Shown one piece after another: positions 349 to 16,633 of a stretch of 16,633 nt of DNA. Each line of letters opens with the position of its first letter. Positions within the stretch are counted from its first letter, which is position 1. This DNA is from a virus (taxonomy: Duplodnaviria; Heunggongvirae; Uroviricota; Caudoviricetes). Below the pieces are notes generated by a model. It had not been told where the DNA came from and made no database searches. It saw nothing but the letters and a program-made list of their open reading frames with translations. The stretch lies in the IMG/VR virus record IMGVR_UViG_2740892219_000014; one strand, given 5' to 3'. The position numbers and the translations under genes are program-made.

Positions 349-567
349 TTTTCATCTCCATATATCTTGCACCCTGTATGGACTCTGATGTGAGTTACAC
401 CACGGATATCCGCTAAGTTGGTGCAATTACTGCTTTTCAATACATTCAACACGCAAATAAATAATCACAATGTATATGCAATAAAAATTAAAACGAATTA
501 TAAATTCACAAAACAAATATATTATTTTCATTACATGTCTTATCAACAGGAGTGCCATTTTACACGA

Positions 568-587
568 TACTGTATACATACACAGTG
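568..587. promoter_or_regulatory. Putative LexA (SOS) box TACTGTATACATACACAGTG
   Basis: CTGT-N8-ACAG palindrome with 17/20 matches to the E. coli consensus TACTGTATATATATACAGTA, both half-sites intact. Lies in the AT-rich divergent intergenic region; a TTGAAA -35-like hexamer sits on the minus strand at 613-618, oriented toward the Mor-like gene, with the -10 ambiguous. Confidence 0.6.
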
Positions 588-903
588 CTATTTATCATTT
601 TTATCGCCTACTTTTCAAAAAGCTCGTTTCCCTCACAGTCGAGGATTTTTTTAAACAAACTTTAAAAATCAAATAAGTAACGACCATGATTGCAATATGT
701 CATCCCCTTCATTACACATAACGCAGGATTTATCTAACTAGCAGCCATTTTATCCTTAGTTCTCTATTTTGAGTTGGGAGATTAATTGGCGAACATGTTA
801 ATTCGAAGAGAACACATTTTTTAAAGTTATTTATTAAAGCTTTTTTCATTCTTCAGCAAAGAGATAAGCAGACACTGGTATCTCACTTATCAGGAGATAT
901 CGT

Positions 904-1191
904 ATGAAAAAAATCACTTTTCCCCGTCTTTCCGGTTGGCTGGCTGCAGCCATTGCTCTGATTGCATTAATCGGCTGGACATCTTCAGCACAAATTCCGG
1001 TCGTCATTTATAAACTAAGCCTGGTTTCACTTTCTGCAGTGCTGGGATACTGGCTCGATCGTAGTTTGTTCCCCTGGGCACGGCCTGACTTTTTTTGCCC
1101 CAGAAAGGAACCGCGTTGCTACGCAGCGGCAATGATTCGTCGCGCCATCATCGTGGCTGCAGTCTGCCTTTCCGTCGCGTTAGGGCTATAG
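904..1191 (+). CDS. Small hydrophobic membrane protein, putative holin
   Basis: 95-aa ORF with AGGAG RBS (892-896) 7 nt before the ATG; 2-3 hydrophobic segments and a charged C-terminal region; its stop TAG (1189-1191) abuts the start of the downstream endolysin gene. Function inferred from position and topology only. Confidence 0.45.
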   Translation: MKKITFPRLSGWLAAAIALIALIGWTSSAQIPVVIYKLSLVSLSAVLGYWLDRSLFPWARPDFFCPRKEPRCYAAAMIRRAIIVAAVCLSVALGL

Positions 1192-1193
1192 TG

Positions 1194-1799
1194 ATGTGGC
1201 TAAAATATATCGCGCTTATGATTATTTTCGTTCTTTTCCCGCTTAACGCGTCTGAACCACCACAAGCCTCTCTGGCATGGAGAAATGAATTGATTCGTAC
1301 CGCCCGAGAAGTCTGGGGACTGAACGCTCCGGTGGCTGACTTTGCCGGGCAATTACACCAGGAGTCCGCCTGGCAGCCAATGGTACGCTCCCCCGTTGGC
1401 GCACAAGGTATGGCGCAATTTATGCCTGCCACAGCGACATGGATAAGCCAACTGTATCCACAGCTACATGAAAACAAACCGTATAACCCAACCTGGGCAA
1501 TCCGGGCGTTGGTACAGTACGACCAGCATTTATGGAACAACATCTCTGCAAAAAATGATTGTCAACGTATGGCGTTTACTCTAAGCGCCTATAACGGTGG
1601 TCAGGGTTGGATTAACCGGGATAAAAAACTGGCGACAACAAAAGGGTTAAATGCCGCCATCTGGTTTGGTCATGTTGAGCAAGTCAACGCCGGGCGCAGC
1701 GCCGCAAACTGGCGAGAAAATCGTCACTATCCGAAGATGATTCTCTATCAACACGCCGCCCGCTACTTACTCTGGGGACAGGCAAGCTGTCTTCACTAA
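1194..1799 (+). CDS. Endolysin, lytic transglycosylase (SLT domain) with N-terminal signal or signal-anchor
   Basis: 201 aa from ATG 1194. N-terminal hydrophobic stretch MWLKYIALMIIFVLFPLNA; the three SLT motifs are present in order: catalytic E-S (QLHQESAWQP), GxxQ (GAQGMAQFMP), AYNxG (LSAYNGGQG). Confidence 0.8.
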   Translation: MWLKYIALMIIFVLFPLNASEPPQASLAWRNELIRTAREVWGLNAPVADFAGQLHQESAWQPMVRSPVGAQGMAQFMPATATWISQLYPQLHENKPYNPTWAIRALVQYDQHLWNNISAKNDCQRMAFTLSAYNGGQGWINRDKKLATTKGLNAAIWFGHVEQVNAGRSAANWRENRHYPKMILYQHAARYLLWGQASCLH

Positions 1800-1811
1800 T
1801 CAGAGGGGCCG

Positions 1812-2126
1812 ATGAAACTCAGTATCGATTTTTGGGAAGTGATCTCCTTTATGCTTTCATTCGTTGGATTAATGTTTGCTGCCGGAAAATTGCTGTTAGC
1901 GCAAATTGAAAAAAGACTTAATGAGCGTTTTGAGTCCCTGGAAAATGCCCGCAGGGAATCAGAAACAAGCTGGTCGAAACTGGAAAGAGAATTTCTCGAA
2001 TTTCGTGCCGAACTTCCACTGTATTATGTCCGCAGAGAGGATTATCTTCGTGGACAAGCAGTATTAGAAGCAAAGCTGGATGCCTTATATAGCAAAATAG
2101 AGTTATTACAACGTGGCAGTTATTAA
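1812..2126 (+). CDS. Membrane-anchored coiled-coil protein of the lysis cassette (possible spanin-like or Mu gp25-like)
   Basis: 104 aa with GAGGGG RBS; N-terminal TM helix (ISFMLSFVGLMFAAGKLLL) followed by a charged heptad-like segment; sits directly after the endolysin and before a terminator. Functional class is inference. Confidence 0.4.
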   Translation: MKLSIDFWEVISFMLSFVGLMFAAGKLLLAQIEKRLNERFESLENARRESETSWSKLEREFLEFRAELPLYYVRREDYLRGQAVLEAKLDALYSKIELLQRGSY

Positions 2127-2130
2127 ATAC

Positions 2131-2164
2131 ATCCCCACCTTTACGTAAGTGTGGGGATTTTTTA
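2131..2164 (+). terminator. Rho-independent terminator after the lysis cassette
   Basis: ATCCCCAC (2131-2138) pairs with GTGGGGAT (2151-2158) around a palindromic TTACGTAA loop, followed by a run of six T; located 5 nt after the stop of the 1812-2126 gene. Confidence 0.7.
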
Positions 2165-2271
2165 TAACCATTCAATTTTTTCTCTAAATCACATTAAAAG
2201 ATTCTTCACTCTCACTGCTTCAGAATACATTTCAACGATAACGAAGTGAGCGGTAATAAGGTACACCTCAT

Positions 2272-2727
2272 ATGAAAGTTTTATCTGTAATGAATTATGT
2301 CGTGGTCAGATTACGTGATCGGCATCCTGAAATGGACATATTCATTTCATCTACGGATGCCCAAAAATATATTCCACAGACACAACAGATTACGGTGATT
2401 ATTAATTATAGCGGTTCTGTCTTCACCACGCCCGAAAGTAGTGATGCCATTGTACAACAGCAAATACTCCGCTTAACCGCCACCGTTATTGTTGGCAAAA
2501 ATTGTGATGCGTTAAACGCACTTGATCACATACGCAGCGCATTGGGAGGCCTTCAGCCTCCTGATTGCGATCATCTTATTTGGCTTGAAAAAGAAATTAA
2601 TACGGGTGAGAGCGACGGTTTCTGCCGCTACATCCTGGAAATGGCGACCAGCTCGCTGTTTATCGCTGAACAGGACAGCACGGATCTTCCCCTGCTTACT
2701 GAAGTTAATTACGAGGAAACTGAATGA
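2272..2727 (+). CDS. Phage virion protein, Mu gp37-like (putative tail completion or terminator protein)
   Basis: 151-aa ORF at the position Mu gene K (gp37) occupies immediately upstream of the sheath gene; its stop overlaps the next ATG (ATGA). Start codon uncertain (ATG 2272 or 2290). Family assignment from synteny and size, not a strong motif. Confidence 0.45.
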   Translation: MKVLSVMNYVVVRLRDRHPEMDIFISSTDAQKYIPQTQQITVIINYSGSVFTTPESSDAIVQQQILRLTATVIVGKNCDALNALDHIRSALGGLQPPDCDHLIWLEKEINTGESDGFCRYILEMATSSLFIAEQDSTDLPLLTEVNYEETE

Positions 2728-2921
2728 AATATATCTACAACGGTCCGGCAAGCGGCGTCACCCTTGCCGACGGTCAAGAAATCTTATTATGGCCGAACAG
2801 TGAAATTGATCTGCCAGAAGACAATGAGTGGGTTATGACCATGATTGCCCGAAATCACTTGATTCTCATCATCCCCCAGGAAGAACAAAATAACGTAGAG
2901 GAAATTGTACATGGCAGCTAA
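2724..2921 (+). CDS. Small phage protein, Mu gp38-like, translationally coupled between gp37-like and sheath
   Basis: 65 aa with GAGGA RBS (2714-2718); start overlaps the upstream stop and its end overlaps the sheath start by 11 nt; acidic; syntenic with Mu gp38. Confidence 0.4.
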   Translation: MKYIYNGPASGVTLADGQEILLWPNSEIDLPEDNEWVMTMIARNHLILIIPQEEQNNVEEIVHGS

Positions 2922-4332
2922 TTATCTGCACGGTGTAGAAACCATTGAAATTGAAACCGGCCCGCGTCCGGTAAAAGCAGTAAAATCAGCTGTAATCGCT
3001 TTAATCGGTACCGCTCCCTGTGGCCCGGTAAACCAACCGACGCTGTGCCTTTCTGAAAGTGACGCGGCACAGTTTGGATCGATTCAGGCTAACTTTACGA
3101 TCCCGCAGGCGCTGAAGGCGATTTATGATCACGGTGCCGGTACAGTGGTGGTAATTAATGTGCTGGATCCAGTAAAACATGGACTACACATTACCAATGA
3201 AACCATTACGTTCAATAGTGACGATAAAGCTAAATTAGCTCATCCGGGGGTAAGTTCGGTAACGCTAAGAGCAAGTATCAGTTCCACTACATACAAAAAT
3301 ACATCATACAGCGTTAATGCCGCTGACGGCGTTATTACCCGTACAGGAACTGAAATTGCGGCAGGAGCAAAGGTTTACGCGACTTATACCTATGTTGACC
3401 CTACAAAGGTCACCGCAGCCGATATTATCGGGGCCGTTAATACCGCAGGCGATCGCACGGGGATGAGGCTCCTTCAGGACACTTATAACTTGTATGGTTT
3501 CTACGCCAAAATTCTGCTGGCACCCGTTTTTTGTACGCAAAAATCAGTGACTACCGAGCTGATTGCACAAGCGGAAAAACTCGGTGCGATTACCTACATT
3601 GATGCCCCAATTGGGACTACATTCCAGCAGGTATTGGCTGGACGCGGTTCGCAAGGCGCAATCAACTTCAATACCAGCTCTGATCGTGCACGTTTATGCT
3701 ACCCACACGTCAAAGTTTACGATGGCATCACTAACCAGGAAATTCTTGAACCTCTCTCTTCGCGCGCTGCCGGGCTACGTGCCAAAGTAGACCTCGAAAA
3801 AGGTTTCTGGTGGAGCAACTCAAACCAGGAAATTCAGGGTATTACCGGTATCGAACGTTCGCTTTCCGCAATGATTGATGATCCACAAAGCGAAGTGAAT
3901 CAGCTCAACGAAAACGGTATTACCACTATTTTCAATAGTTATGGTTCTGGTCTGCGCCTGTGGGGCAACCGCACAGCGGCATGGCCAACCGTGACTCATA
4001 TGCGTAACTTTGAAAACGTTCGCCGGACAGGCGATGTAATTAATGAGTCAATCCGTTATTTCAGTCAACAGTATATTGATATGCCGATCAATCAGGCACT
4101 GATTGACGCGCTGACCGAATCGGTAAATACCTGGGGCCGAAAACTGATTGCCGACGGCGCACTGCTTGGCTTTGAGTGCTGGTACGATCCGGCGCGAAAT
4201 TCACCGGCTGAACTCAGTGCCGGGCATTTATTGCTCAGCTATAAATTTACCCCACCGCCGCCGCTGGAACGTCTGACGTTTGAAACTGAAATTACCTCTG
4301 AATATTTAGTCTCTCTGGAGAGCAATCGCTAA
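2911..4332 (+). CDS. Contractile tail sheath protein (Mu gpL / P2 FI family)
   Basis: 473 aa from ATG 2911 (GAGGA RBS 2898-2902; the track's TTG at 2905 is less likely). N-terminus MAANYLHGVETIEIETGPRPV is typical of sheath proteins; size and position directly upstream of the tube gene fit. Confidence 0.9.
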   Translation: MAANYLHGVETIEIETGPRPVKAVKSAVIALIGTAPCGPVNQPTLCLSESDAAQFGSIQANFTIPQALKAIYDHGAGTVVVINVLDPVKHGLHITNETITFNSDDKAKLAHPGVSSVTLRASISSTTYKNTSYSVNAADGVITRTGTEIAAGAKVYATYTYVDPTKVTAADIIGAVNTAGDRTGMRLLQDTYNLYGFYAKILLAPVFCTQKSVTTELIAQAEKLGAITYIDAPIGTTFQQVLAGRGSQGAINFNTSSDRARLCYPHVKVYDGITNQEILEPLSSRAAGLRAKVDLEKGFWWSNSNQEIQGITGIERSLSAMIDDPQSEVNQLNENGITTIFNSYGSGLRLWGNRTAAWPTVTHMRNFENVRRTGDVINESIRYFSQQYIDMPINQALIDALTESVNTWGRKLIADGALLGFECWYDPARNSPAELSAGHLLLSYKFTPPPPLERLTFETEITSEYLVSLESNR

Positions 4333-4856
4333 TGGCTGGAAAAATTCAAATTAACCGTATTACCAACGCCAATATTTATCTCGATGGTAATAATCTTTTA
4401 GGCCGTGCAACAGAAATTAAATTGCCAGATGTCAGTTTAATTATGCAGGAACATAAAGCACTGGGCATGGTGGGTAAAATAGAACTCCCGGCTGGTTTCG
4501 ATAAACTGGAGGGGGAAATTAAATGGAACTCCTTTTACCAGGACGTAATGCGTAAAACGGCAAACCCGTGGCAGGCTGTAGCATTACAGTGTCGCTCCAG
4601 TATTGATTGTTATAACTCTCAGGGGAAAGCGAATCAATTAGCGTTAGTCACACATTTAACCGTGATGTTTAAAAAAAATCCACTGGGCACATTTAAACAG
4701 AATGAAAACCCGGAATTCAGCAGCGCCTTTGGCTGCACTTATATTAAACAAGTAGTCGATGGTGAAACGCTGCTTGAACTGGATTATATGGCGAATATTT
4801 TCCGCGTTAACGGCGTGGATCAATTAAGTACCTATCGCAATAACATCGGTGGCTAA
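4332..4856 (+). CDS. Tail tube protein (Mu gpM / P2 FII family)
   Basis: 174 aa; start overlaps the sheath stop (TAATG). N-terminus ...NANIYLDGNNLLGRATEIKLP and C-terminus ...NIFRVNGVDQLSTYRNNIGG closely resemble the P2 FII tube pattern (NLFxDGxN ... VNGVDxLxxxRxNIG). Confidence 0.9.
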   Translation: MAGKIQINRITNANIYLDGNNLLGRATEIKLPDVSLIMQEHKALGMVGKIELPAGFDKLEGEIKWNSFYQDVMRKTANPWQAVALQCRSSIDCYNSQGKANQLALVTHLTVMFKKNPLGTFKQNENPEFSSAFGCTYIKQVVDGETLLELDYMANIFRVNGVDQLSTYRNNIGG

Positions 4857-4862
4857 GTTATT

Positions 4863-4878
4863 CGGGGCTACGGCCCCG
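4863..4878 (+). other. GC-rich hairpin (CGGGGC-TACG-GCCCCG) right after the tube gene
   Basis: Perfect 6-bp GC stem with tetraloop 7 nt after the tube stop; no T-run follows, so more likely an RNA stability or attenuation element than a full terminator. Confidence 0.35.
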
Positions 4879-4906
4879 AACTCCGCAAAATAAATAAGGA
4901 TACAAA

Positions 4907-5224
4907 ATGAAAGAGCATTATATCTTACAGTTTCCCTTTACGTCGGCAGCAGGAAATAATATCGACACGCTACAATTACGTCGCCTGAAAGTCAAAGATA
5001 TGCGTAATGCACGCCGGGTCAGCGAAAAGCCGGAAGAATGGGATGAACCGCTAATGGCAGCGATGACCGGGCTGGTACCAGAAGATTTAGCTGAAATGGA
5101 TTTGCTGGATTACCAGGCGTTGCAGAAACGATTTCAATCCATGCTTACCGTGGCTACAGAATCCCCCCTTGCTATGGCAGGCAATGGCGCTACTGGCGAG
5201 ATGGTTTCGCTTTCCACCCAGTGA
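4907..5224 (+). CDS. Tail assembly chaperone (P2 gpE / Mu gp41 position), short in-frame product
   Basis: 105 aa, acidic, with AAGGA RBS; located between the tube and tape-measure genes, as for tape-measure chaperones. Confidence 0.7.
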   Translation: MKEHYILQFPFTSAAGNNIDTLQLRRLKVKDMRNARRVSEKPEEWDEPLMAAMTGLVPEDLAEMDLLDYQALQKRFQSMLTVATESPLAMAGNGATGEMVSLSTQ

Positions 5225-5312
5225 GATTGACGCTCTAACGATAGATGACTTTAGTCACTGGCTGGATGAAGCCAGCGCTCAAATAAAAATCGAATATGAC
5301 TCGCAGACCTGA
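5163..5312 (+). other. Putative programmed frameshift site (C6 run) and +1-frame extension giving a longer chaperone isoform
   Basis: The +1 frame (equivalent to -2) is open from 5055 to a TGA at 5310-5312, overlapping the chaperone 3' end; UCC_CCC_CUU at 5162-5170 would let tRNA-Pro re-pair 2 nt back; the extension reads ...PPSEIDALTIDDFSHWLDEASAQIKIEYDSQT. The -1 frame closes almost immediately. Confidence 0.45.
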
Positions 5313-5412
5313 TGTCTGCGAGTTCTTCAAAGCCCGCCAGGTTTATTTCTTCCCAGCCCATTTTTCAGAAAACTAACCAGCGGGCCATCACCAATCTATA
5401 AGAGAAACAATT

Positions 5413-7788
5413 TTGGCCAACGATATTATTACCCAGCTTCAGGCGCGTAATGAGACGTTGACGCAGGCAATAGCCCGTTACGGCTCACTCAACGCCAGAA
5501 CATTGTTAGCACTCTCTTCTCAGCAAGCGACAGTAATCAAACTAACGCAGCAACTTGCCGATTCCGCTCTCCGCCTGGAGGAAAATAGCCGAAACCGCGC
5601 TGATCTGATGGAGAAAACCCAAACATTTGCTGGGCAATTTAGCAAAGTATTCAATGTTGAAGTCCCTGACTGGAAGTTGCCGTATGAGTTTCAGGACAAC
5701 ATGGTCAATTTGGCGACCAAAGGTGGGATGAATGATACAACCCGCGAGACACTCAGCCTTAATCTGCGCGACTGGAGCATGGATTTTAACCAGCAGCAGA
5801 CCACCTTACAGAACGCAGCCCAGGTGCTAATCGAAGGTAATTTGTCGTCGATGCAGGATCTCAACCGTTATATGCCGGAGCTCGCCAAAGCGGCCACCAC
5901 CACGCGCGAAAGTGCTGAAACATGGGCGAATGCCGCGCTCGCGACTCATGATCGACTGAATATTGCGCCAGAAAATTTCCACGCCGCGCAAAACATGATG
6001 TACGGCATTAGCAAAAACGGTGGGCCTACCGTTGCCGGGCAAACACAGTGGATAGACAAATTTGCAGTTAAAACTGGCGCACAGGGTTTAGAAGGTATGG
6101 CTGAACTGACCGCCACAATGCAGATCGCAATGAAAAATGGTGCCAGCGCCAGTGTGGCGGCGGAGAATTTCGACCACTTTCTGCAAACCATCTTTTCGAA
6201 AAAAACCGATAACTGGTTCGTCAGCCAGGGCGTCGATCTGCAAGGCTCTTTGCTTGAACATCAGCAAAACGGCATGGGTGTTAGCGAAGCCATGATTCAT
6301 ATCGTGCAAACGCAACTTGAGAAGATGAATCCGGCGATCCTCGACACCTTCAAACGCACCATGCAAATTGAAGATTTATCTGCTCGCAGCAACGCACTGC
6401 AATCGATGGTGACGCAATTTAATCTGGGCGAAATGTTCGGCGATGCGCAAACAGTGGAATTCCTGGCACCTGTGCTGGCGAATATGGAAGAGTATCGCCA
6501 GTTAAAAGCATCCGCCATGCAAGACAGCGGTAAGAATATGATTGACAACGATTTTTCTGTGCAGATGGCCTCGCCCATTGAACAAACTAAAACGTTACAA
6601 CTGGCGTTAAATGATTTATGGCTCAGCATTGGCTTGCAATTAATGCCGCTGATTGGCGAGTTGGCGCAAAGCCTTACTCCGGTGATTCGCCAGTTCAGCG
6701 CCTGGCTACGTGAACACCCGGCGCTGGTGCAAAACATTGCGAAAATCGTCGGAGCGATTTGGCTGTTTAACGGCGCACTGAATGTTTTAAAGCTGGGCGC
6801 GAACGTCATCGCCTCGCCGTTTATTCGTCTGGTCGATATCTTCCTGAAAGTCAGGGCAAGTCTGACGCTCACAGGCGCGGCAAGTAAGATGCTATCAGCG
6901 GTTAATTCATTATATAACGGCGCAAAATGGCTAACGCAACTGCTTGGCCGTGGCCTGATTGGCGCATTGAAACTGGCAGGTCAGACCGTCTTCTGGTTGG
7001 GTAGAGTTTTATTGATGAATCCTATTGGTCTGGTCATCACCGCGATTGCGGGCGCTGCTTATCTGATCTATCGCCACTGGGAACCTATCTCCAGATTCTT
7101 TTCCGCCATCTGGCAACGTATCACCACGGCCTTTGACGGCGGCATTGCAGGGATTTGCCGGTTAATTCTCGACTGGTCGCCGCTGGAGTTGTTCTACAAC
7201 GCCTTTTCCAGTGTGATGAATTGGTTTGGTGTCGAGATGCCTGCAAGTTTTAGCGAGTTCGGCAGCAATCTTCTGGGCAGTCTGGTTGACGGCATAATGA
7301 ATGCTTTCCCCGCTCTGAAAGGCATTATTGATCAGGTCAAAAACGCCTTACCGGACTGGCTAAAAACCACGATGGGTATTAGCACAGAAGGATCGGCTAC
7401 GGCTGTTACAAGCACGACGAATACCGCATCAATCTCCCCCACGACCGTTGTTCCAGGCGTTGCCGGAGCGATTTTAACGCCTCCTGTGGGCAAACAACTC
7501 GCGCCATCCAGTAAAACGACAACGTCGCCATCGACACCAGCGGAAAAAAATACAGCCGCCAAACCCGCATCGGCTTCTTTACCTGGTAAATCTGTAACCA
7601 AACCGGCGACGCTCCCCTCCCGTTCCTCTGGAAAAGTTCAGGTGAATTTTTCGCCACAAATTACCGTGCAGAGTAACGGACAAAACACCACTAAAGACAT
7701 TCAGAACGTGTTGACGATAAGTAAACGCGAACTGGAAAGAATGATTAACGACGTAATGGCGCAACAACAGCGCCGGGGGTATGCCTGA
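5413..7788 (+). CDS. Tail tape measure protein
   Basis: 791 aa; helical Q/A/L-rich N-terminal half, hydrophobic glycine-rich segments in the middle, and a Ser/Thr/Pro-rich low-complexity C-terminal region; sits after the chaperone gene. Apparent TTG start at 5413 (no in-frame ATG or GTG after the upstream stop at 5374-5376). Confidence 0.85.
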   Translation: MANDIITQLQARNETLTQAIARYGSLNARTLLALSSQQATVIKLTQQLADSALRLEENSRNRADLMEKTQTFAGQFSKVFNVEVPDWKLPYEFQDNMVNLATKGGMNDTTRETLSLNLRDWSMDFNQQQTTLQNAAQVLIEGNLSSMQDLNRYMPELAKAATTTRESAETWANAALATHDRLNIAPENFHAAQNMMYGISKNGGPTVAGQTQWIDKFAVKTGAQGLEGMAELTATMQIAMKNGASASVAAENFDHFLQTIFSKKTDNWFVSQGVDLQGSLLEHQQNGMGVSEAMIHIVQTQLEKMNPAILDTFKRTMQIEDLSARSNALQSMVTQFNLGEMFGDAQTVEFLAPVLANMEEYRQLKASAMQDSGKNMIDNDFSVQMASPIEQTKTLQLALNDLWLSIGLQLMPLIGELAQSLTPVIRQFSAWLREHPALVQNIAKIVGAIWLFNGALNVLKLGANVIASPFIRLVDIFLKVRASLTLTGAASKMLSAVNSLYNGAKWLTQLLGRGLIGALKLAGQTVFWLGRVLLMNPIGLVITAIAGAAYLIYRHWEPISRFFSAIWQRITTAFDGGIAGICRLILDWSPLELFYNAFSSVMNWFGVEMPASFSEFGSNLLGSLVDGIMNAFPALKGIIDQVKNALPDWLKTTMGISTEGSATAVTSTTNTASISPTTVVPGVAGAILTPPVGKQLAPSSKTTTSPSTPAEKNTAAKPASASLPGKSVTKPATLPSRSSGKVQVNFSPQITVQSNGQNTTKDIQNVLTISKRELERMINDVMAQQQRRGYA

Positions 7789-8741
7789 TGTATGCCGTTT
7801 TAGGAGAGATTGAATTTAAGGTTGTCACATTCTGGGACGGCTTTAAAAGCACAATGGGCGTGGACTACGCCACACATGCCCGTATAGAAGGCAAACCCGG
7901 CGTGCAGTTTATTGGCGATAAGCTGGATATGCTGGCACTGGAATTTTCCTTGCACAGCCAGTTTTGCCAACCCACAACAGAGCTGAATCGACTGCGTGAA
8001 GCCATGCTTGCCCACAAAGCGATGGCTCTGGTGTTTGGCAATGGCGATTATCGCGGCTGGTTTGTGATTACGGAGCTAACCGCCACCCACCAGCACACCG
8101 ATCCCTGGGGCAATGTGATTGCTCAAAGCGGAACAATGTCGCTCCAGGAGTACACCGGCGATCCTAAAAATCCACTCTTGCCCCCGGCAATTACTACCCA
8201 AGACCCGAATATTGACGAAAAGGCGAGCGATTTTCCAGACATGGTGGAGTCCTGGTTTGATCAGATATTGAACGCCATTGAAGAAGGTATGCGTAAGGCC
8301 AAAGAGATGCTCGATGAGCTGACTCAAGCCATTGAAGATATTAAAAAAACGGTGGCAAAAGTGAAAGCACTGGTTAAAGAGGCCAAAGCGTTAAAAGAAA
8401 AGTGTGAAAAGATAATTACGTCGTTGAAAAAGACTATCGACGCCATCGAAACCCTGTTTAAACAGCCCATGGATCTGCAAACGCTGGCAGGACTCCCAAA
8501 AGCGTTGTCGGCGCAGATTAACGCTTTACTGGGTAACATGCCAGGTATCCGGGACTGCGCCAAAGACGCCAGCACGCTGGTTGACCATGCTCAGGCGCTT
8601 TTCGACGACATTACCAACGACATCGCCGAAGCGACGTTCGATAAAGCCGCAACGTTGGTTGAGCAGGCACGAACAACGGTACAACAAACCACTCCCGCAG
8701 TGAGCCAGCTTGCTGCCGCGACCATTACGAGGAGCTGGTGA
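7788..8741 (+). CDS. Tail protein with gpU-like N-terminal domain (about 130 aa) fused to a long predicted coiled-coil C-terminal region
   Basis: 317 aa; start overlaps the tape-measure stop (TGATG). The N-terminal segment fits the slot and general pattern of P2 gpU / Mu gp43 N-domain; residues about 150-317 are K/E/A/L-rich heptad-like sequence (EEGMRKAKEMLDELTQAIEDIKKTVAKVKALVKEAKALKEK...). Confidence 0.5.
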   Translation: MYAVLGEIEFKVVTFWDGFKSTMGVDYATHARIEGKPGVQFIGDKLDMLALEFSLHSQFCQPTTELNRLREAMLAHKAMALVFGNGDYRGWFVITELTATHQHTDPWGNVIAQSGTMSLQEYTGDPKNPLLPPAITTQDPNIDEKASDFPDMVESWFDQILNAIEEGMRKAKEMLDELTQAIEDIKKTVAKVKALVKEAKALKEKCEKIITSLKKTIDAIETLFKQPMDLQTLAGLPKALSAQINALLGNMPGIRDCAKDASTLVDHAQALFDDITNDIAEATFDKAATLVEQARTTVQQTTPAVSQLAAATITRSW

Positions 8742-8950
8742 TGCGATACCTTGAACATATCACCACCGACGGCGAACGCTGGGATAATCTGGCATGGCAT
8801 TACTACGGCGATGCGCTGGCTTATGAACGCATCATCGCCGCCAATCCACATGTCGCCATTTACCCGGTACTGCCTTCCGGTATTCAGCTCATTATTCCGG
8901 TCATTTCCGTCAACAAAACCTTATCGGAGATACCACCATGGCTGAGATAA
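8741..8950 (+). CDS. Tail protein X-like (LysM-like fold, P2 gpX family)
   Basis: 69 aa from ATG 8741 (GAGGA RBS 8730-8734; overlaps the upstream stop). The sequence GERWDNLAWHYYGDALAYERIIAANPHVAIYPVLPSGIQLIIP fits the gpX pattern (GDxxDxLxxxYYG...ANPxL...LPxGxxLxIP). Confidence 0.7.
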   Translation: MRYLEHITTDGERWDNLAWHYYGDALAYERIIAANPHVAIYPVLPSGIQLIIPVISVNKTLSEIPPWLR

Positions 8951-9978
8951 GCGTATCTGGTGGCGTCTTTGCCACACTCGCGCCCATTTTTACCCTTTGG
9001 TATGGGCATAAAGATATCACTTATGACATCACGCCCTATGTCACCAGCATCAGTTACCACGACAGCATCAAAAACGAGTCAGATACCATCGCCATTACAC
9101 TGGATGACACCGATGGACGTTGGATAAAAGAGTGGTATCCCGGCAAAGGCGATACGCTGGCGCTGCATATGGGTTATCAGGGGGAGACGCTCCTCGATTG
9201 CGGTCAGTATATTATTGATAAAATTGATATTTCATCACCACCTTCCACGGTAAATATTGATGGCATTGCCACTTCCGTCAATCAGGCGCTGCGTACCCGT
9301 AACAGTCAGGGCTTTGAAGAAACGACGCTTTCGGCCATCGCCAGTCGTATCGCGCAAACTCACGGTCTGAAGCTGGTGGGCAAAATCGAGCCGCTGGCGA
9401 TTGACCGGGTGACACAGTACGGCGAAACCGATGTTGGATTTCTCAAGCGTCTGGCCAGCGAATATGGCTATACCGTGAAAGTGACGACAAAAGAGCTGAT
9501 TTTTTCACATCTGCCGACACTACGCTGCCTGGCGCCAGTGAAAACCATCGACCGCAAAGAGGTTTCGCACTTTACCTTCAAAGACACCATTAATCGCATC
9601 TACAAGAACGCCACCGTACAGCATCAAAATAGTAAGAAAAAAGAACTGGTTATCTACACTCACGACAGCCAGCAAAAACCGTCAGCCCGTGGAGTCGGCA
9701 CCAGTGCCGACACGTTGAAACTCAACAGCCGGGCGACGGATGTTGGCGCGGCACAGGCAAAGGCCAACGCTGCACTCGACAGCCACAACGAATATCAGCA
9801 AACCGGAACACTCAGGATGATGGGCTGCCCGGAACTGACAGCAGGCAATAAAATCGAACTCATTGATTTTGGTATTCTTTCTGGACAATGGCTGATTGAT
9901 AAATCTACTCACAGTTTTGTGCGCAGCGGCTATACCACTGAAATCGACGTTTCGCGCGGGCCAGCAACCAGCCAGTAA
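8938..9978 (+). CDS. Baseplate hub / late control gene D-like protein (P2 gpD, Mu gp44 family)
   Basis: 346 aa with GGAG RBS; start overlaps the gpX-like 3' end; size and position (after U/X, before the spike) fit the gpD family. Confidence 0.8.
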   Translation: MAEISVSGGVFATLAPIFTLWYGHKDITYDITPYVTSISYHDSIKNESDTIAITLDDTDGRWIKEWYPGKGDTLALHMGYQGETLLDCGQYIIDKIDISSPPSTVNIDGIATSVNQALRTRNSQGFEETTLSAIASRIAQTHGLKLVGKIEPLAIDRVTQYGETDVGFLKRLASEYGYTVKVTTKELIFSHLPTLRCLAPVKTIDRKEVSHFTFKDTINRIYKNATVQHQNSKKKELVIYTHDSQQKPSARGVGTSADTLKLNSRATDVGAAQAKANAALDSHNEYQQTGTLRMMGCPELTAGNKIELIDFGILSGQWLIDKSTHSFVRSGYTTEIDVSRGPATSQ

Positions 9979-9987
9979 GGAGGCACT

Positions 9988-10647
9988 ATGAAGGGAGTAA
10001 CCCGGCAAACGGGGATTATCAGCGATATTGACGAAACCAGCGTTCGGGTGCGAGTCACACTGCCAGAGTGCGACAATCTGAAGAGTAACTGGCTTGCGGT
10101 ACTTCAACGTAATTCCCAGGACAATAAAGACTACTGGCTACCGGATATGGGTGAGCAGGTGGAAGTTCTGCTGGACGACAACGGCGAAGATGGCGTGGTA
10201 CTTGGGGCCGTTTATTCTACGGTTGACACCGCGCCTGTGGCCTCGCGAGATAAACGTTACGTCCAGTTTTCTGATGGCGCAGCGTTTGAATATGACCGCA
10301 GCACACACCAGCTTACGATTAACGGCGGTATTGAGAAAATCGTGATTGAGGTTATTGACCGTACTAACCTGACATCACCCAACGTTGAGGTTAAAGCCCA
10401 ACAGGTCACCGTGACTTCCGATACCGTCGATATTAAAGCGACGGCAGTGACGGTAGATGCGCCCATGAGCACCTTTACTGGTAACGTCACGGTAATGAAA
10501 AAACTCACCTGGCTGGGTGGCATGGCAGGAAGTGGAGGCATCGGTAACGCCGCCACGATAACTGGCAATGTCAATGTGATTGGTAACGTTCAGGCCAGCG
10601 GCACATTGCAGGATAGCGGTGGTAACTCAAATCACCATTCACACTAG
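9988..10647 (+). CDS. Baseplate central spike (P2 gpV / Mu gp45 family)
   Basis: 219 aa with a perfect AAGGAGG RBS; N-terminal OB-fold-like region, a middle region of repeated short beta-strand motifs (VTVTSDTVDIKATAVTVDA...), a glycine-rich section and a C-terminal NHHSH tip, as in gpV-type spikes with a metal-binding apex. Confidence 0.85.
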   Translation: MKGVTRQTGIISDIDETSVRVRVTLPECDNLKSNWLAVLQRNSQDNKDYWLPDMGEQVEVLLDDNGEDGVVLGAVYSTVDTAPVASRDKRYVQFSDGAAFEYDRSTHQLTINGGIEKIVIEVIDRTNLTSPNVEVKAQQVTVTSDTVDIKATAVTVDAPMSTFTGNVTVMKKLTWLGGMAGSGGIGNAATITGNVNVIGNVQASGTLQDSGGNSNHHSH

Positions 10648-10653
10648 CTTTTA

Positions 10654-10682
10654 ACCCGCCTGATGGCGGGTTTTCTCTTTTT
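10654..10682 (+). terminator. Rho-independent terminator-like hairpin after the spike gene
   Basis: ACCCGCC-TGAT-GGCGGGT stem-loop followed by TTTTCTCTTTTT, starting 7 nt after the gpV-like stop; leaves a roughly 60-nt spacer before the gpW-like gene. Confidence 0.55.
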
Positions 10683-10745
10683 AATCAATCAGTTTTCTAA
10701 ATCGCTTTAATATCCCCACTGTCCGTTCAGGGCGAAAATAAGCAC

Positions 10746-11105
10746 ATGAACACAAAAACACGCCCCTCAACGCTGCACTGGCAACCCGCCTTGCAGCGGC
10801 CTGAAGAATACGTCTGCGGACTGGATGATATTCACCAGGCAATACACATCATTCTGCGCACGCCGCGCGGCAGTGATCCCCACAGACCGCTGTTTGGCAG
10901 CAACTTGTGGCACTACATCGATTACCCCATCGAGCGGGCAATCCCGCATGTGGTACGGGAGTCGGTGGAAGCCATCCGCCAGTGGGAACCGCGATGTCGG
11001 TTGCTGAAGGTAGCACCGATAATCGACGGTGAACATCTGACGTTACGTGTGCAATGGCGCGCCGCTGACGGCGTAATCAACTCAACGGAGGTGTTATGGC
11101 GATAG
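10746..11105 (+). CDS. Baseplate protein W (GPW/gp25 family)
   Basis: 119 aa; IHIILRTPRGSDPHRPLFGSNLWHYID ... WEPR matches the GPW/gp25 signature (ILxTxxGE/S...P.FGS.L...D...WEPR). Confidence 0.75.
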   Translation: MNTKTRPSTLHWQPALQRPEEYVCGLDDIHQAIHIILRTPRGSDPHRPLFGSNLWHYIDYPIERAIPHVVRESVEAIRQWEPRCRLLKVAPIIDGEHLTLRVQWRAADGVINSTEVLWR

Positions 11106-12211
11106 CCGAACCCGATTTTATTGACCGCGATCCTGCGCAAATTACCAGCGAGATGATTGCGCAATACGAAGATGCCAGCGGTAAAAAACTCTATCCGGCA
11201 CAGGCCGAACGGTTACTCATCGACCTGTTTGCCTATCGTGAAAACCTTGTGCGCATCGCCATTCAGGAAGCGGCGAAACAAAACCTGGTCGCGTATTCCC
11301 GCGCACCAATGTTGGATTATTTAGGGGAGCTGGTGGGTGTTCACCGTTTACCTGCGCAACCGGCAAAAACGACGTTGCAGTTTTCGGTCGTCAGTGCGTA
11401 TACCAGCAATATCCTGATTCCCCAGGGGACGCGGGCCAGTGCCTCTGACAGCGTGATGTTCGCCACCGATGAAGATGTTCTGCTTCCGGCCAGGAGTTTG
11501 CATATCGCCGTTCCGGCCACCAGCCTCGCAGTAGGTGAACAGGGCAATGGCTGGCAGCCTGCACAGATTAGCGCCCTTGTTGACAGGATCGGTTATTACG
11601 ATATCAACGTGACTAATCTGACTCCCACAACCGGCGGTTGTGGTGAAGAGAACGATGATGCACTACGCCAGCGTATACAACTGGCGCCAGAAAGCTTCAG
11701 TAATGCCGGCAGCTATGGCGCATATCGCTTTCATACACTTTCGGTTAGCCAGTCAATTATTGACGTTACAGTACTGGGGCCAGATGAAGGGTTGCCAGAA
11801 GGCTGCGTCGAGCTCTACCCGCTAACCCTGAATGGTCTGCCAGGAACCGAGCTACTCGCGCAAATTGAACAAGAAGTGAGTAAAGAGAAAAAACGTCCGC
11901 TGACTGACAAAGTAAGTGCGAAATGTGCTCTTAGGGTGCCGTATGAAATTCGTGCGCAGCTAACGCTGTTTACCACCGCCGATCAGGAGACAACACTGGC
12001 TGCGGCGCGTAAAGCGATTAGCCTCTGGACGCAACAGCGGCAGAAACATCTGGGGCAGGACATTGTGCCAAACCAGATAATCAAAGTGTTACAAGTCGAT
12101 GGCGTCTATGACGTTGTGCTGAACATGCCTACAAAACGTATTTTGCAGGCGCATGAATGGGCGGAATGCACTGTAATAGACGTCACGATTGCCGGAGTCA
12201 GCGATGGATAA
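11096..12211 (+). CDS. Baseplate wedge protein J (P2 gpJ / Mu gp47 family)
   Basis: 371 aa; start overlaps the gpW-like stop; DDALRQRIQLAPESFSNAGSYGAYRFHTLS resembles the conserved gpJ core; sits in the gpW-gpJ-gpI order. Confidence 0.85.
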   Translation: MAIAEPDFIDRDPAQITSEMIAQYEDASGKKLYPAQAERLLIDLFAYRENLVRIAIQEAAKQNLVAYSRAPMLDYLGELVGVHRLPAQPAKTTLQFSVVSAYTSNILIPQGTRASASDSVMFATDEDVLLPARSLHIAVPATSLAVGEQGNGWQPAQISALVDRIGYYDINVTNLTPTTGGCGEENDDALRQRIQLAPESFSNAGSYGAYRFHTLSVSQSIIDVTVLGPDEGLPEGCVELYPLTLNGLPGTELLAQIEQEVSKEKKRPLTDKVSAKCALRVPYEIRAQLTLFTTADQETTLAAARKAISLWTQQRQKHLGQDIVPNQIIKVLQVDGVYDVVLNMPTKRILQAHEWAECTVIDVTIAGVSDG

Positions 12212-12920
12212 ATTGCTGCCACCGCCGCCGCTTGCCAGCGATGAGCGTTTTTCAACTCTGGCAAATATCGCCGCCGAACGTTTTGCGCAACTCGATCTGA
12301 CGGCATTAATGATATACCTGGTCGACCTGGTTGATGCTTCGGCATTACCTGCCCTTGCAGAACAATTTCACGTTCAGGGGCTGGAAGGTTGGTTATTTAC
12401 TACTGATGAACAAGAGAAGCGTGAGTTAATTAAGCAAGCCATTGAGTTACATAAATATAAAGGAACAGTTTGGGCGGTACGGCGAGTACTGGAAATACTC
12501 TCATTGCCTGGAACTATTGCCGAATGGTTTGAATATGGCGGGAAAGCTTATTTTTTTAAGGTTGATATTACACTAGAGGAAAAAGGGTTAAATGAAGATG
12601 AATTTAATGCACTTATCACATTAATTCATGAATATAAAAATGTTCGTTCAAAACTGGAAAGTATTGTTATTTGGCTTATTAATCAAAGCTCAATACCAGT
12701 TATTGGCAGTGCCATGCAAGGAGGGGAAATCATTACAGTATTGCCTCCTGTTGCAGAAAGTATCAGCCAATCATCAAGAATATTTTTAGCGACAGGTTAT
12801 TGTGTAGAGGAATATATCCAACTACTACCTTATCAACCTGATCGCCTTACACAATCCCAACCGATGAAAATCGGTACAGGATACTGGAGCACCGAAATTA
12901 TGTCTGTATACCCGGAGTAA
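12204..12920 (+). CDS. Baseplate/tail protein I-like (P2 gpI / Mu gp48 position) with an AT-rich C-terminal extension
   Basis: 239 aa from ATG 12204 (GGAG RBS; ATGGATAA overlap with the gpJ-like stop; the track's TTG at 12189 is less likely). N-terminus [16 protein letters not shown] fits the gpI type; the 3' half (about 12480-12920) is markedly AT-rich compared with neighbours. Confidence 0.65.
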
Positions 12921-12922
12921 TA

Positions 12923-14671
12923 ATGGCAAGTGAATTTTTTACAATATTAACTGCTGCAGGCAAAACCCAAATTGCCTCAGCACTGGCGGAGCAAAAACAG
13001 ATCCGTCTGCAAACTATGGTAGTTGGCGATGGCAACGGTAAATATATCGAACCGACAGAAATCCAGACCAAAGTAGTCCATGAGGTCTGGCGTGGTCAGC
13101 TCAATACATTAAAAATTGCGCCAGATAATCCGGCCTGGGTTATCGCAGAAGCGATTATTCCCGAAGAGGTTGGAGGCTGGTATGTTCGCGAAGTTGGGTT
13201 GCTGGATACCGACGGCACGCTGGTCGCTATTGGTAAATTCCCTGAAACCTATAAACCACAATTACCTGCAGGTGCCAGTAAGCAAATTGTTATACGCGCA
13301 GTGATGGAAGTGACAAATGCGGATGTGGTGACGCTGTTGATAGATCCTTCAGTTGTTATGGCAACCAGGGAATATGTCGATGACACGCTGAAAGCACATC
13401 AGCAATCACGAAATCATCCTGATGCAACACTGACGCAGAAAGGTTTCACGCAACTGAGTAATGCAACTAATAGCGATGATGAAACCAAAGCGGCCACACC
13501 AAAAGCAGTAAAAACCGCATATGACCTGGCAAATAGCAAAGCCGCCACCAGCCATACTCATGGCTGGAATCAGATAACCAGTATCCCTGACGGTACGCTG
13601 GCGCAGAAAGGGATTGTGAAGCTTAACAGTACCACAAACAGCACCAGCACAACGGAAGCTGCAACACCGAGCGCGGTGAAGGCGGCAATGGATAAGGCTA
13701 CTGCGGCTGCACCAGCAAGCCATACCCACACCTGGGGACAAATCACTGGTATCCCCGACGCCACGCTGACGCAAAAAGGAATTGTGAAGCTTAACAGTAC
13801 CACAAACAGCACCAGCACGACGGAAGCTGCAACACCGAGCGCGGTGAAGGCGGCAATGGATAAGGCTATTGCGGCAGCACCAGCAAGTCATACCCACGCC
13901 TGGGGACAAATCACTGGTATCCCCGACGCCACGCTGACGCAAAAAGGAATTGTGAAACTTAACAGTACCACAAACAGCACCAGCACGACGGAAGCTGCAA
14001 CACCGAACGCGGTGAAGGCAGCAATGGATAAGGCTATTGCGGCGGAAAACTGTCCCGTAGGTATGCCTATTCCCTGGCCGTCTGATTCTGTACCTTCAGG
14101 CTATGCGCTGATGACAGGACAAACATTCAATAAAACCTCCTATCCCAAACTGGCGATTGCATATCCATCTGGTGTCATTCCTGATATGCGTGGATGGATA
14201 ATTAAAGGGAAACCGGCCAGTGGGCGCACAGTATTATCAACTGAACTGGATGGAGTTAAATCACATAACCATACGGGCAGTATTTCTAGTACGGATTTAG
14301 GGACAAAAACCACAGCCCTCACAGACTTGGGGACTAAAACTACATCAGCATTTAACCATGGTAATAAAACAACAAGTTCATCTGGCACAGTCTCGGCAAC
14401 TGCAACTGTAAGAACAGGGACATCTTCGCCAGAGGGCCAAGCCGACTGGACATCATATGGCCCTGGAACCGGATCATCTTTGACTATTAATGTTCCATCA
14501 CACGCCCATAGTATTACAATTGGTTCCCATTCCCACACTGTTGCACTCGGCACCCATTCGCATTCAATTGCCCTTGGTTCCCATAACCACTCCCTAACCA
14601 TTAATAATACAGGCCCCCCCGAAAACACCGTTAAAAATATCGCATTCAACTATATTGTGAGGCTAGCATGA
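12923..14671 (+). CDS. Tail fiber protein (P2 gpH / Mu S type) with collagen-like repeats and a His-x-His tip
   Basis: 582 aa. Conserved N-terminal baseplate-attachment region (HEVWRGQLN...[38 protein letters not shown]...[48 protein letters not shown]); three 56-aa tandem repeats ([36 protein letters not shown]...); a C-terminal array of H-x-H motifs; and a terminal ...[15 protein letters not shown]. Confidence 0.9.
13553..14045 (+). repeat. In-frame 168-nt tandem repeat, about 2.9 copies, inside the tail fiber gene
   Basis: Copies begin at 13553, 13721 and 13889 (period exactly 168 nt); copies 2 and 3 are nearly identical at the nucleotide level and copy 1 is more diverged; a degenerate partial copy lies upstream at about 13425-13552. 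Confidence 0.85.
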
Positions 14672-15375
14672 ATACTTTTACCTTTTCCGATGAAGCTCAA
14701 ATACTGACTGTTTATAATTTTTCACAAGACTCCCGAGAATATATTGGTGAGTCTGATGCATACATTGCGCCTAATACAGGCTTACCAAATTTTTGCACAT
14801 TAATTTCACCTCCCAAAAAGGTTCCTGGTTTTACTCCTGTTTGGGAGAGTGAAACATGGGGACTTATTGAAGATCATCGAGGCCAAACAGTTTATAACAA
14901 AGTTGATGGCAGCCAGACTATTATTAATAAATTGGGTCAATTGCCTGAAACTGTCACAATTATTTCCCCTACCAGTACTTTTGAGCGTTGGGATGGCGAA
15001 AAATGGCAGCCATCACTTGATGATGCTAAACAGGCGATATATGCCGAAATCAAAAACCTGCGCGATTCTGCCATCGCCGATTACATCATCATCAACGCTC
15101 ATCACTTCCACAGTGATACAAATAGCCGAATACAACAACTCTCACTCACAAAAATGGGAGCCGAAAAACAAATTCCGCCAGGTTTAATGTGGAAAACTAA
15201 AAATAACGGTCTGATTGAGTTAACCAACGAAATCGCCGCCCAGTTTGAATCGGTAACAATAGATCACGATATGCGCCTGTTTGCCAACGCCCAGCGCCAT
15301 ATTGCGGCGGTGGAAACTCTGGGCGATATTCAGGCAGTGCTCGACTACGACTACTCCACAGGCTGGCAACCATGA
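14668..15375 (+). CDS. Tail fiber assembly protein (Tfa, chaperone for the fiber tip)
   Basis: 235 aa; start overlaps the fiber stop (ATGA). N-terminal region ...[34 protein letters not shown]...[20 protein letters not shown]...[13 protein letters not shown]...WDGEKW resembles lambda/P2-type Tfa N-domains; the C-terminal half is divergent. Confidence 0.8.
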
Positions 15376-15827
15376 GTAAAACCACTGTCTGGCTCGCTTG
15401 CTATAAAGGCCGAACAGAGCACCGGGGTATTGCGCAACTAGCTGACTGGCTTACCCGTAAAATCACACGCGGCAGTTATTCCCACTGCGAGTTAGCAGTG
15501 GTATATGGTGAAAAAAATTACCTTTGTTACTCTGCATCACTGCGCGATCGCGGTGTACGCGGAAAGATAATGCCACTACCGTCAGATAAGTGGGATATGC
15601 TGCCGCTCCAGGCTAGCGTTCAGGATGTGGAAGCTTTTTTCCATAAACATAATGGCAAAAAATACGACTGGCGCGGAGCCTTAGGAATTATCACAGGCAA
15701 TAAAGAACAGCGCGATCGTCTGTTCTGCAGTGAATTTTGCGCCGAGTTTCTACAGTTAAAAGAGAGTTGGCGCTATTCCCCAAACCATTTGTATGCTTTA
15801 GTCAGCAGTTGGCAATATCAGCCGTAA
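15372..15827 (+). CDS. Hypothetical 151-aa protein coupled to tfa; possible permuted papain-like (NlpC/P60 YaeF/LRAT-like) hydrolase or acyltransferase
   Basis: ATG overlaps the tfa stop (ATGA), so it is the last gene of the tail operon. An N-proximal His (SYSHCELAVVYG) and a C-proximal Cys in a CSEF context (RLFCSEFCAEF) tentatively fit a permuted His...Cys papain-like arrangement. It is real as an ORF; the function is weakly supported. Confidence 0.5.
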   Translation: MSKTTVWLACYKGRTEHRGIAQLADWLTRKITRGSYSHCELAVVYGEKNYLCYSASLRDRGVRGKIMPLPSDKWDMLPLQASVQDVEAFFHKHNGKKYDWRGALGIITGNKEQRDRLFCSEFCAEFLQLKESWRYSPNHLYALVSSWQYQP

Positions 15828-15832
15828 AATAA

Positions 15833-15853
15833 CGCCGGGCATCACGCCCGGCG
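15833..15853. terminator. Hairpin shared by the convergent gene ends; likely terminator for the minus-strand gene
   Basis: CGCCGGGC-ATCAC-GCCCGGCG stem-loop between the plus-strand stop (15825-15827) and the minus-strand stop (15842-15844, inside the loop); on the minus strand it is followed by TTATTTTAC, whereas on the plus strand no T-run follows. Confidence 0.55.
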
Positions 15854-16633
15854 CATTACCGTCTGGTACAGTAAACTATCCAGTTCCTTAACGTCCCCTT
15901 CCCTGCTGTCCGGTAACACTGGTGGAATTTTCCCGTGCACCAGTTCCGTACTAATAAACACATGCAACAAAGGACGACGCGGACCATATTCCACTTCACC
16001 CGCACGCTGTTTACATTCCAGCAACTCGTCTATTTCTGCGCGTAACGGCGCATCAAGTTCGCTTCCCGCCAGTAATTCGGCAAACCGCATTGGCAGTACA
16101 CCTTTACCCGCTTCAACCCAACGCACAGCCAGCAGTGGCCGCAGCACGTAAAAGTATTTTTTCAGCCAAACTACGTTGCCCTGCAAATAACCGCGAAAAT
16201 TTTTCCGCGCCATCGGATAATAATGCCAACGCGCGCGCAGCGGAGAAAACCACTTCGGCACCATTGCCTTAAGCGCCGTTATCGTTTCTTCATCTTGTTG
16301 ATAGACCACCGGAGAATCCAGCCATTCAATCAGCGTCGGATTCGCGCCTTTCAGTAATCCCAGCGCCTTGCGCCACTCCCAGCCTGAAACATCTAACTCG
16401 TCGTCAATAGGCAACTCAATAACATCGCGCGGCGCCTCCACCCGCAGATACCATTCCGGCGGATGAACATACAAGAACCGCACATCGTAGTCGCTGTCGG
16501 GTGAGGCAAATCCCCAACCGCGACTCCCCGATTCACTCGCATACAACACTTTCACATCATACCGCCGTTCAATTTCTTTTAACTGCTGCGATACCCGTTC
16601 GTGCATCGCAACACTGACTCCATTTAATGGCAT
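15842..16633 (-). CDS. Nucleotidyltransferase-fold protein (Pol beta superfamily)
   Basis: 263-aa ORF whose ATG is the last codon of the window (16631-16633), so the true N-terminus could lie beyond the edge. The motif LYASESGSRGWGFASPDSDYDVRFLY matches the minimal nucleotidyltransferase signature hG[GS]-x(9-13)-DhD; it is convergent with the tail operon. Confidence 0.6.
   Translation of the reverse strand: MPLNGVSVAMHERVSQQLKEIERRYDVKVLYASESGSRGWGFASPDSDYDVRFLYVHPPEWYLRVEAPRDVIELPIDDELDVSGWEWRKALGLLKGANPTLIEWLDSPVVYQQDEETITALKAMVPKWFSPLRARWHYYPMARKNFRGYLQGNVVWLKKYFYVLRPLLAVRWVEAGKGVLPMRFAELLAGSELDAPLRAEIDELLECKQRAGEVEYGPRRPLLHVFISTELVHGKIPPVLPDSREGDVKELDSLLYQTVMRRA

Follow-up and report, generated by a model that had tools for sequence, protein, structure and literature searches.

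The window analyzed here, a 16,633-nucleotide stretch of DNA, contains tail genes in the order tape measure, long gpU, gpX, gpD, V, W, J, and I. The open reading frame (ORF) list and translation place a complete long GpU-family gene at 7788..8741 on the plus strand; it starts with ATG and encodes a 317-aa protein, the likely tube initiator or baseplate centerpiece of the tail, and the interval 8238-8741 corresponds to codons 151-317 and the stop codon. Directly upstream lies the gene for a 791-aa tape measure protein (5413..7788, plus strand), identified by the Pfam family PhageMin_Tail and by the RefSeq annotation of its E. coli ortholog. The two genes are translationally coupled, the long gpU ATG overlapping the tape-measure stop codon by 1 nt in the sequence TGATG at 7786-7790. 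The same overlap of 1 nt recurs at the other end of the gene, where TGATG at 8739-8743 joins its stop codon to the ATG of a gene for a gpX-type small protein (8741..8950, plus strand; Phage_tail_X, PF05489, E = 1.7e-23), and the E. coli annotation of the gpX-type gene begins at the base equivalent to 8741. A 346-aa gpD-type baseplate hub follows (8938..9978, plus strand), supported by Pfam Phage_GPD (E = 7.8e-11), phrog_52 (E = 3.7e-131), and annotation. The E. coli ortholog of the 317-aa protein (WP_022646413.1) is 96% identical in protein sequence and is annotated as "phage tail protein."

By gene content, the window (1-16633) appears to be a tail-only locus, with no head, transposase, or integrase genes. 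It opens with a divergent Mor-family activator gene (1-348, minus strand) followed by holin, SLT lysozyme, and membrane protein genes, and a Bcepmuvirus-type tail operon then runs through a gp37-family gene, sheath, tube, baseplate, and fiber genes. The corresponding E. coli locus (L001) adjoins lysC and was found in 195 of 5426 complete genomes at 90-99% identity, and the head-less arrangement is also present in Dryocola, Phytobacter, and Superficieibacter. On this gene content the window is a candidate R-type tailocin. We found no paper describing this tail-only locus; papers on the BceTMilo tailocin and on an ST131 "tailocin" concern P2-like elements and do not explain it. The relatives encoding the 294-aa type of the protein that we checked (L010, L012, L024, and L034) have head genes upstream. 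A Pectobacterium fontis cluster encoding the 305-309-aa type (L021, 10001-10909 and flanks) has a lysis cassette upstream and no head genes; we presume that it may be a carotovoricin-type tailocin locus.

Other features of the window lie outside the long gpU gene. The fiber gene (12923-14671) encodes a protein 74% identical to its E. coli ortholog, compared with 86-100% for the other tail proteins, and G+C content falls to 0.42-0.43 around 12000-13500 while AT skew rises to 0.28 over 13000-14500. Together, the divergence of the fiber and the compositional shift across 12000-14700 fit an exchanged receptor-binding module. The gpV spike (9988-10647) is shorter here, at 219 aa, than its counterparts from E. 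coli, Dryocola, and Phytobacter, at 233 aa, which indicates an internal indel of ~14 residues. A gene with a nucleotidyltransferase domain (15842-16633, minus strand) comes directly after the tail cluster and is followed in E. coli by a slipin-family gene; the nucleotidyltransferase gene also adjoins the tail cluster in Phytobacter and Superficieibacter.

A tube-like GpU domain occupies aa 1-134 of the 317-aa protein (7788..8189, plus strand) and ends in the near-invariant motif GDPKNPLxPPAI. Phage_P2_GpU (PF06995) matches aa 6-123 over profile positions 1-119 of 120, with 116.8 bits against a cut-off of 27.5 (E = 5.8e-34). Low AlphaFold confidence (pLDDT below 50 over residues 126-154) and low conservation mark an acidic, proline-containing linker, predicted to be disordered, at aa 135-154 (8190..8249, plus strand). 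The remaining ~163 residues (aa 155-317; 8250..8738, plus strand) form a helix-rich C-terminal domain, predicted to be an antiparallel bundle of five long helices and one short helix. Its end is a tail recognized by conservation (aa 301-317; 8688..8738, plus strand) with the consensus SPxLSxLAAxIxTRS, in which S306 is invariant and R315 is more than 90% conserved in the family alignment; this tail is a candidate partner-binding helix. No curated Pfam family matched aa 151-317 at the cut-off, and only sub-threshold matches to assorted coiled-coil families were obtained.

A first-pass annotation made from the sequence alone had described a gpU-like N-terminal part, in the genomic slot of gpU, extended by a K/E/A/L-rich coiled coil of roughly 170 residues. 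The first element holds: the GpU domain at aa 6-123 is encoded after the tape measure and before gpX and gpD. The composition of aa 151-317 (A 15%, L 10%, K 10%, T 10%, D 8%, I 8%, and E 7%) also fits the description. The coiled coil is only partly borne out. Over aa 151-230 there is a hydrophobic periodicity of 3.5 residues that none of 1000 shuffled sequences equaled, so that the description of the C-terminal region does not reflect chance, and a single heptad register runs unbroken from ~aa 155 to 224. Across aa 231-317, the periodicity is 3.6 residues (P = 0.001) and prolines and glycines interrupt the helices, a pattern that suggests amphipathic helices and not a heptad coiled coil. An AlphaFold2 monomer model built from a 47-sequence alignment (mean pLDDT 68, pTM 0.50) shows a beta-rich N-domain connected through a disordered linker to a helical bundle in the C-terminal region. 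Helices are predicted at residues 156-188, 192-225, 230-234, 238-273, 280-299, and 302-316, and block-mean pLDDT is mostly 82-96 on the main helices but drops around 221-250 and from 301 onward. The C-terminal region is thus predicted to fold back on itself as a compact antiparallel bundle instead of forming one long coiled coil, and the proposal that it acts as a length adaptor, for which we found no support, sits poorly with such a shape.

The whole protein (aa 1-317) aligns with PHROG 788 ("tail protein") over profile positions 1-297 of 297 (E = 2.1e-130). Searched alone, the C-terminal half matched PHROG 788 positions 148-297 (E = 4.7e-40). A search of 5.8 billion proteins returned 161 homolog clusters, and most of the best 120 of these were full-length, at 288-327 aa. 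Full-length homologs are widespread in Enterobacterales; the matches listed include Salmonella, Enterobacter, Escherichia, Yersinia, Klebsiella, Pectobacterium, Photorhabdus, Xenorhabdus, and other sources. Scanning genomes extended the range to Dryocola, Phytobacter, Superficieibacter, Pantoea, Brenneria, Lonsdalea, and Chromobacterium, and intact 317-aa orthologs are present in at least four other genera (Salmonella, Dryocola, Phytobacter, and Superficieibacter). Megablast of phage genomes matched nothing, and tblastn was needed. Phage proteins with the same layout are BcepMu gp45 and phiE255 gp19 (296 aa each), "tail protein U" of Escherichia phage PhiKM, and a 289-aa protein of a Pseudomonas relative. 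In all four, the surrounding genes follow the order seen in the window, from the tape measure through long gpU, gpX, gpD, V, W, and J to I.

These matches tell against the idea, raised in the first-pass annotation, that the extended protein is a lineage-specific innovation or a fusion: all 317 aa belong to a standard full-length member of a known family, relatives of full length are widespread, the Bcepmuvirus phages share the layout, and the C-terminal domains are homologous across subtypes. On sequence grounds, the protein is a further member of the PHROG 788/Bcepmuvirus long-gpU group, with a layout that is already known.

Variant forms were seen among the homologs (P0054, P0071, P0087, P0022, and P0026-P0030). 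Rare in-frame fusions of long gpU with gpX, 364 aa long, occur in other genomes (P0054, P0071, and P0087) and have an order of parts like that of Mu gp43. A 488-aa form in Salmonella Oslo is the result of a deletion joining long gpU to gpD, and in Salmonella variants of 288-289 aa the first helices are shortened by exactly 28 residues (four heptads, aa 169-196). Apparent short homologs of 185-250 aa (P0094, P0103, and P0109) were considered as true bare forms and rejected, as they are frameshifted and carry out-of-frame tails past ~residue 145. In Salmonella and in Klebsiella phage KP12, long gpU is systematically misannotated as "chemotaxis protein" or "methyl-accepting chemotaxis protein," and many homologs of Mu gp43 carry the name "multidrug DMT transporter permease."

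The two halves of the protein evolve very differently. Across subfamilies, the N-domain is 60-66% identical with many invariant columns. Identity over residues 155-300 is 11-18% between the 317-aa subtype and the 294/305-aa subtypes, with several indels, and the last 17 residues are 35-71% identical in most sequences and 24-29% in a few. The 317-aa subtype has additional residues near aa 226-245. Relative to PhiKM, the encoded proteins and domains are identical at 75% (sheath), 75% (tube), 68% (gpW), 66% (GpU N-domain), 65% (gpX), 59% (gpD), 57% (gpJ), 34% (tape measure), and, over 127 aa, 23% (helical domain). In comparison with the E. coli ortholog, dN/dS is 0.017 over the N-domain; over the helical domain it is 0.225, so that this domain is less constrained but clearly maintained by purifying selection. 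Profile comparison of the C-terminal domains aligned the 317-aa and 305-aa types end to end (probability 98.3%, E = 1.7e-14) and linked the 305-aa and 294-aa types (probability 99.7%, E = 2e-25). The domains of the three enterobacterial subtypes therefore represent one divergent family and not repeated acquisitions. A phmmer search with the C-terminal domain alone against 1.84 billion representative proteins gave 19 hits: members of the 317-aa subtype itself, fragments, and three long repetitive sequences, the last of which are taken as compositional.

Among the closest known systems are the Bcepmuvirus proteins. BcepMu gp45, phiE255 gp19, and PhiKM "tail protein U" likewise consist of a GpU N-domain, a helical C-domain of ~160 aa, and a conserved C-terminal tail, and their genes have the same neighbors, with the tape measure upstream and gpX and gpD downstream. 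The phiE255 protein aligns end to end (aa 1-315) at 33% identity and keeps the conserved C-terminal tail. Unlike these genes, which belong to complete phages, the window gene sits in a tail-only locus. Within the same Pfam family (PF06995), the tube domains of P2 gpU and phiCTX gpU lack such a long C-domain: phiCTX gpU has only 146 aa, and P2 gpU is modeled to approximately residue 150. P2 gpU forms a ring on the gpD hub, with the LysM glue protein gpX as a separate chain; in both P2 and phiCTX, gpX is encoded elsewhere in the genome, whereas here it is directly downstream.

Mu gp43 (protein N, "DNA circularization protein"; Protein Data Bank [PDB] 9KI1) fills the corresponding slot behind the tape measure, and its tube-like and helix-rich parts follow one another as they do here. 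However, it has 495 aa and eight helices, belongs to Pfam DNA_circ_N (PF07157, 91.2 bits) and not to PF06995, and contains LysM in the same chain, where the present locus has a separate gpX gene. PF07157 was absent from Pfam matches to E = 1 for both the whole 317-aa protein and its N-terminal half, and no LysM or Phage_tail_X match was found within the 317 aa. Placed between the 146-aa phiCTX gpU and a 495-aa DNA_circ_N protein with an internal LysM, the protein is neither a compact gpU nor a full Mu gp43, as had been proposed at first reading. BLASTP with Mu gp43 gave nothing significant, and hhalign gave probabilities of 22-29% (29% in the comparison of the two families). The alignment is collinear but falls short of significance, and we therefore do not claim that the helical domains are homologous. 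The Agrobacterium phage proteins 7-7-1 gp114 (PDB 9RKU) and Milano gp25 also begin with a tube domain of ~127 aa, after which comes a helical bundle that scaffolds two neighboring wedges. Both are longer than the 317-aa protein (398 and 396 aa) and have larger bundles, and Milano gp25 ends in a fused LysM that is separate here.

The pyocin R2 ripcord PA0626 (PDB 6U5B chain h, 290 aa) shares with the 317-aa protein the Pfam GpU domain and the gene neighborhood of tape measure, ripcord, LysM glue (PA0627), and hub, and is close to it in total length; a wedge-joining role has been ascribed to the ripcord extension (PMC10811340). According to the same study, the pyocin helical bundle is fused to the C terminus of the tube domain, and we initially assumed that the ripcord and the 317-aa protein share their domain order. 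Sequence alignment gave the opposite result and conflicts with that description. The phiCTX gpU aligns to PA0626 residues 158-285, a segment that scores 114 bits on Pfam GpU, and because this GpU domain lies at residues 158-285 of 290, the extension of ~157 residues is N-terminal. The domain order is thus reversed relative to the 317-aa protein, in which GpU is at aa 6-123 and the extension is C-terminal. BLASTP detected no similarity between the GpU domain of PA0626 and the GpU domain studied here.

No structure exists for the long-gpU subfamily, and PDB sequence searches with the whole protein, the N-domain, the family profile, and the Pseudomonas homolog yielded only coiled-coil and designed-bundle noise and no relative. 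With Foldseek, the GpU domain matched tube-initiator chains of contractile systems, and the AlphaFold model has a tube-like beta-barrel domain followed by a helical domain. The best PDB match to the full-length model was 9rku_A1 (398 aa; 370 aligned columns, E = 3.4e-3, identity 9%, TM-score 0.24), which we take to be phage 7-7-1 gp114 because of its length of 398 aa. Among viral models, a Mu gp43-type protein of 407 aa named "DNA circulation, N-terminal" matched best (369 columns, E = 1.8e-6), and LysM-containing viral models of 424 and 560 aa matched over 330 and 292 columns. The full-length fold matches have low TM-scores (0.20-0.25), as the interdomain orientation is arbitrary in a monomer model. 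A helical bundle is a generic fold, which weighs against the tube-initiator reading.

Recently solved structures define what proteins in this slot do. As tube initiator, P2 gpU forms a hexamer seated on the gpD hub, and its C-terminal helix contacts the wedge triplex; P2 gpX is a LysM-fold "glue" protein (bioRxiv 10.64898/2026.09.14.750843). In Mu gp43, a tube-like domain is joined to an eight-helix domain with LysM that is embedded between wedges and stabilizes the wedge-hub connection (PMC11915804). Milano gp25 comprises a Tube domain (1-127), a Helical domain (141-345), and LysM (346-396), and its helical part scaffolds the wedges (PMC10811340); phage 7-7-1 gp114 comprises a beta-barrel (1-127) and helical bundles (128-398) scaffolding the wedges (PMC12796354); and in Pam3 gp17, two C-terminal helices lie at the inner wedge face (PMC9942802). 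Taking these solved relatives together with the Foldseek fold matches, we consider it likely that the 317-aa protein is the tube initiator (baseplate centerpiece) of a Bcepmuvirus-type contractile tail and that its helical domain bridges the hub and the wedges. The position of the helical domain and its wedge-joining (glue) role are inferred by analogy with the Mu, Milano, 7-7-1, Pam3, and P2 structures, with which the proposed location at the tail-baseplate junction, already suggested in the first-pass annotation, also agrees.

In the resulting model, six GpU N-domains would form a tube-like ring atop the trimeric gpD hub, and this ring would seed polymerization of the tube around the tape measure. 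Past the flexible linker, the helical bundle would extend outward and downward from the ring and, together with the separately encoded LysM protein gpX, would occupy the space between the hub and the wedges (gpW, gpJ, and gpI), where the two would lock the wedges in the precontraction baseplate. The pyocin centerpiece is extruded with the tube on contraction (PMC10811340), and by this analogy the centerpiece would probably exit the baseplate with the tube tip. One feature fits the model less comfortably: an identity to PhiKM of 23% for the helical domain, as against 57-68% for gpX, gpD, W, and J, is unexpected of a tightly packed interface.

That rapid divergence, shared with the tape measure (23% and 34% in the PhiKM comparison, against 54-75% for other core tail proteins), could instead point to a helical domain that acts mainly after contraction, riding the tube tip into the target envelope to insert into the membrane or stabilize a pore, or, in phage relatives, binding DNA ends as does Mu N. 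Mu gp43 reportedly accompanies the DNA into the cell and circularizes it (PMC11915804), the pyocin centerpiece is reported to move out with the tube (PMC10811340), and the helices of the C-domain are amphipathic. However, no transmembrane or DNA-binding family was detected in the 317-aa protein with Pfam or PHROG, it has no significant sequence relation to Mu gp43, and a locus without head genes would have no DNA to circularize, yet the domain is under purifying selection. Such a role would be compatible with the fast evolution and with the Mu and pyocin reports, and also with an additional structural role in the baseplate, but we regard it as unlikely to be the main one. A bolder version, in which six fast-evolving bundles, taken across the target envelope on the tube tip, would constitute a lineage-specific effector-like module that helps to breach or depolarize the membrane, strikes us as highly improbable; were it true, the helical domain, and not the fibers alone, would set part of the killing efficiency or target range.

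The kinship in character between long gpU and the tape measure, both helical and fast evolving and encoded by translationally coupled genes, also raises the idea that the helical region lies inside the tube lumen beside the tape measure as a second tape-measure-like or chaperone element setting or capping tail length. Residues 140-310 do give weak PHROG matches to tape-measure families (E = 2e-4 to 2e-2), but these fall well short of the family-level matches and are of the kind that shared composition commonly produces among helical proteins. In every solved relative, moreover, the extension of the tube-initiator domain runs outward to the wedges and not into the lumen, the prediction is of a folded bundle rather than an extended helix, and the length of the C-domain differs between subtypes (whole proteins of 288-327 aa), so that we give a lumenal element hardly any credence. 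The names attached to the Salmonella homologs and to the feature in Klebsiella phage KP12 would imply a signaling or chemotaxis-type coiled coil, an accidental fusion or a decaying pseudogene being further options, and profile searches do match cytoplasmic domains of methyl-accepting chemotaxis proteins (MCPs) in the PDB (E ~1e-5). Those matches, though, are interspersed with viral fusion proteins and de novo designed helical bundles and so are compositional; no MCP family is among the best 25 Pfam matches, and none matches the C-terminal half at the cut-off. The gene lies within a tail operon in every genome examined, and it is intact at 317 aa in four or more further genera with dN/dS below 0.25. 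Gene context and domain content effectively refute this last interpretation.

Three layouts of the GpU tube-initiator family can thus be distinguished: the bare form of P2 and phiCTX; the N-terminally extended form of the pyocin R2 ripcord; and the C-terminally extended form of the Bcepmuvirus type. Set beside Mu gp43, the 317-aa protein falls into a series whose members carry the helical glue domain and the LysM module either in one chain or in separate ones. The tube-initiator assignment opens no new question, but it gives a specific, likely role to a protein that databases name "phage tail protein" or, wrongly, "chemotaxis protein," and it would be useful for annotation and for the engineering of tailocins from this E. 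coli locus.
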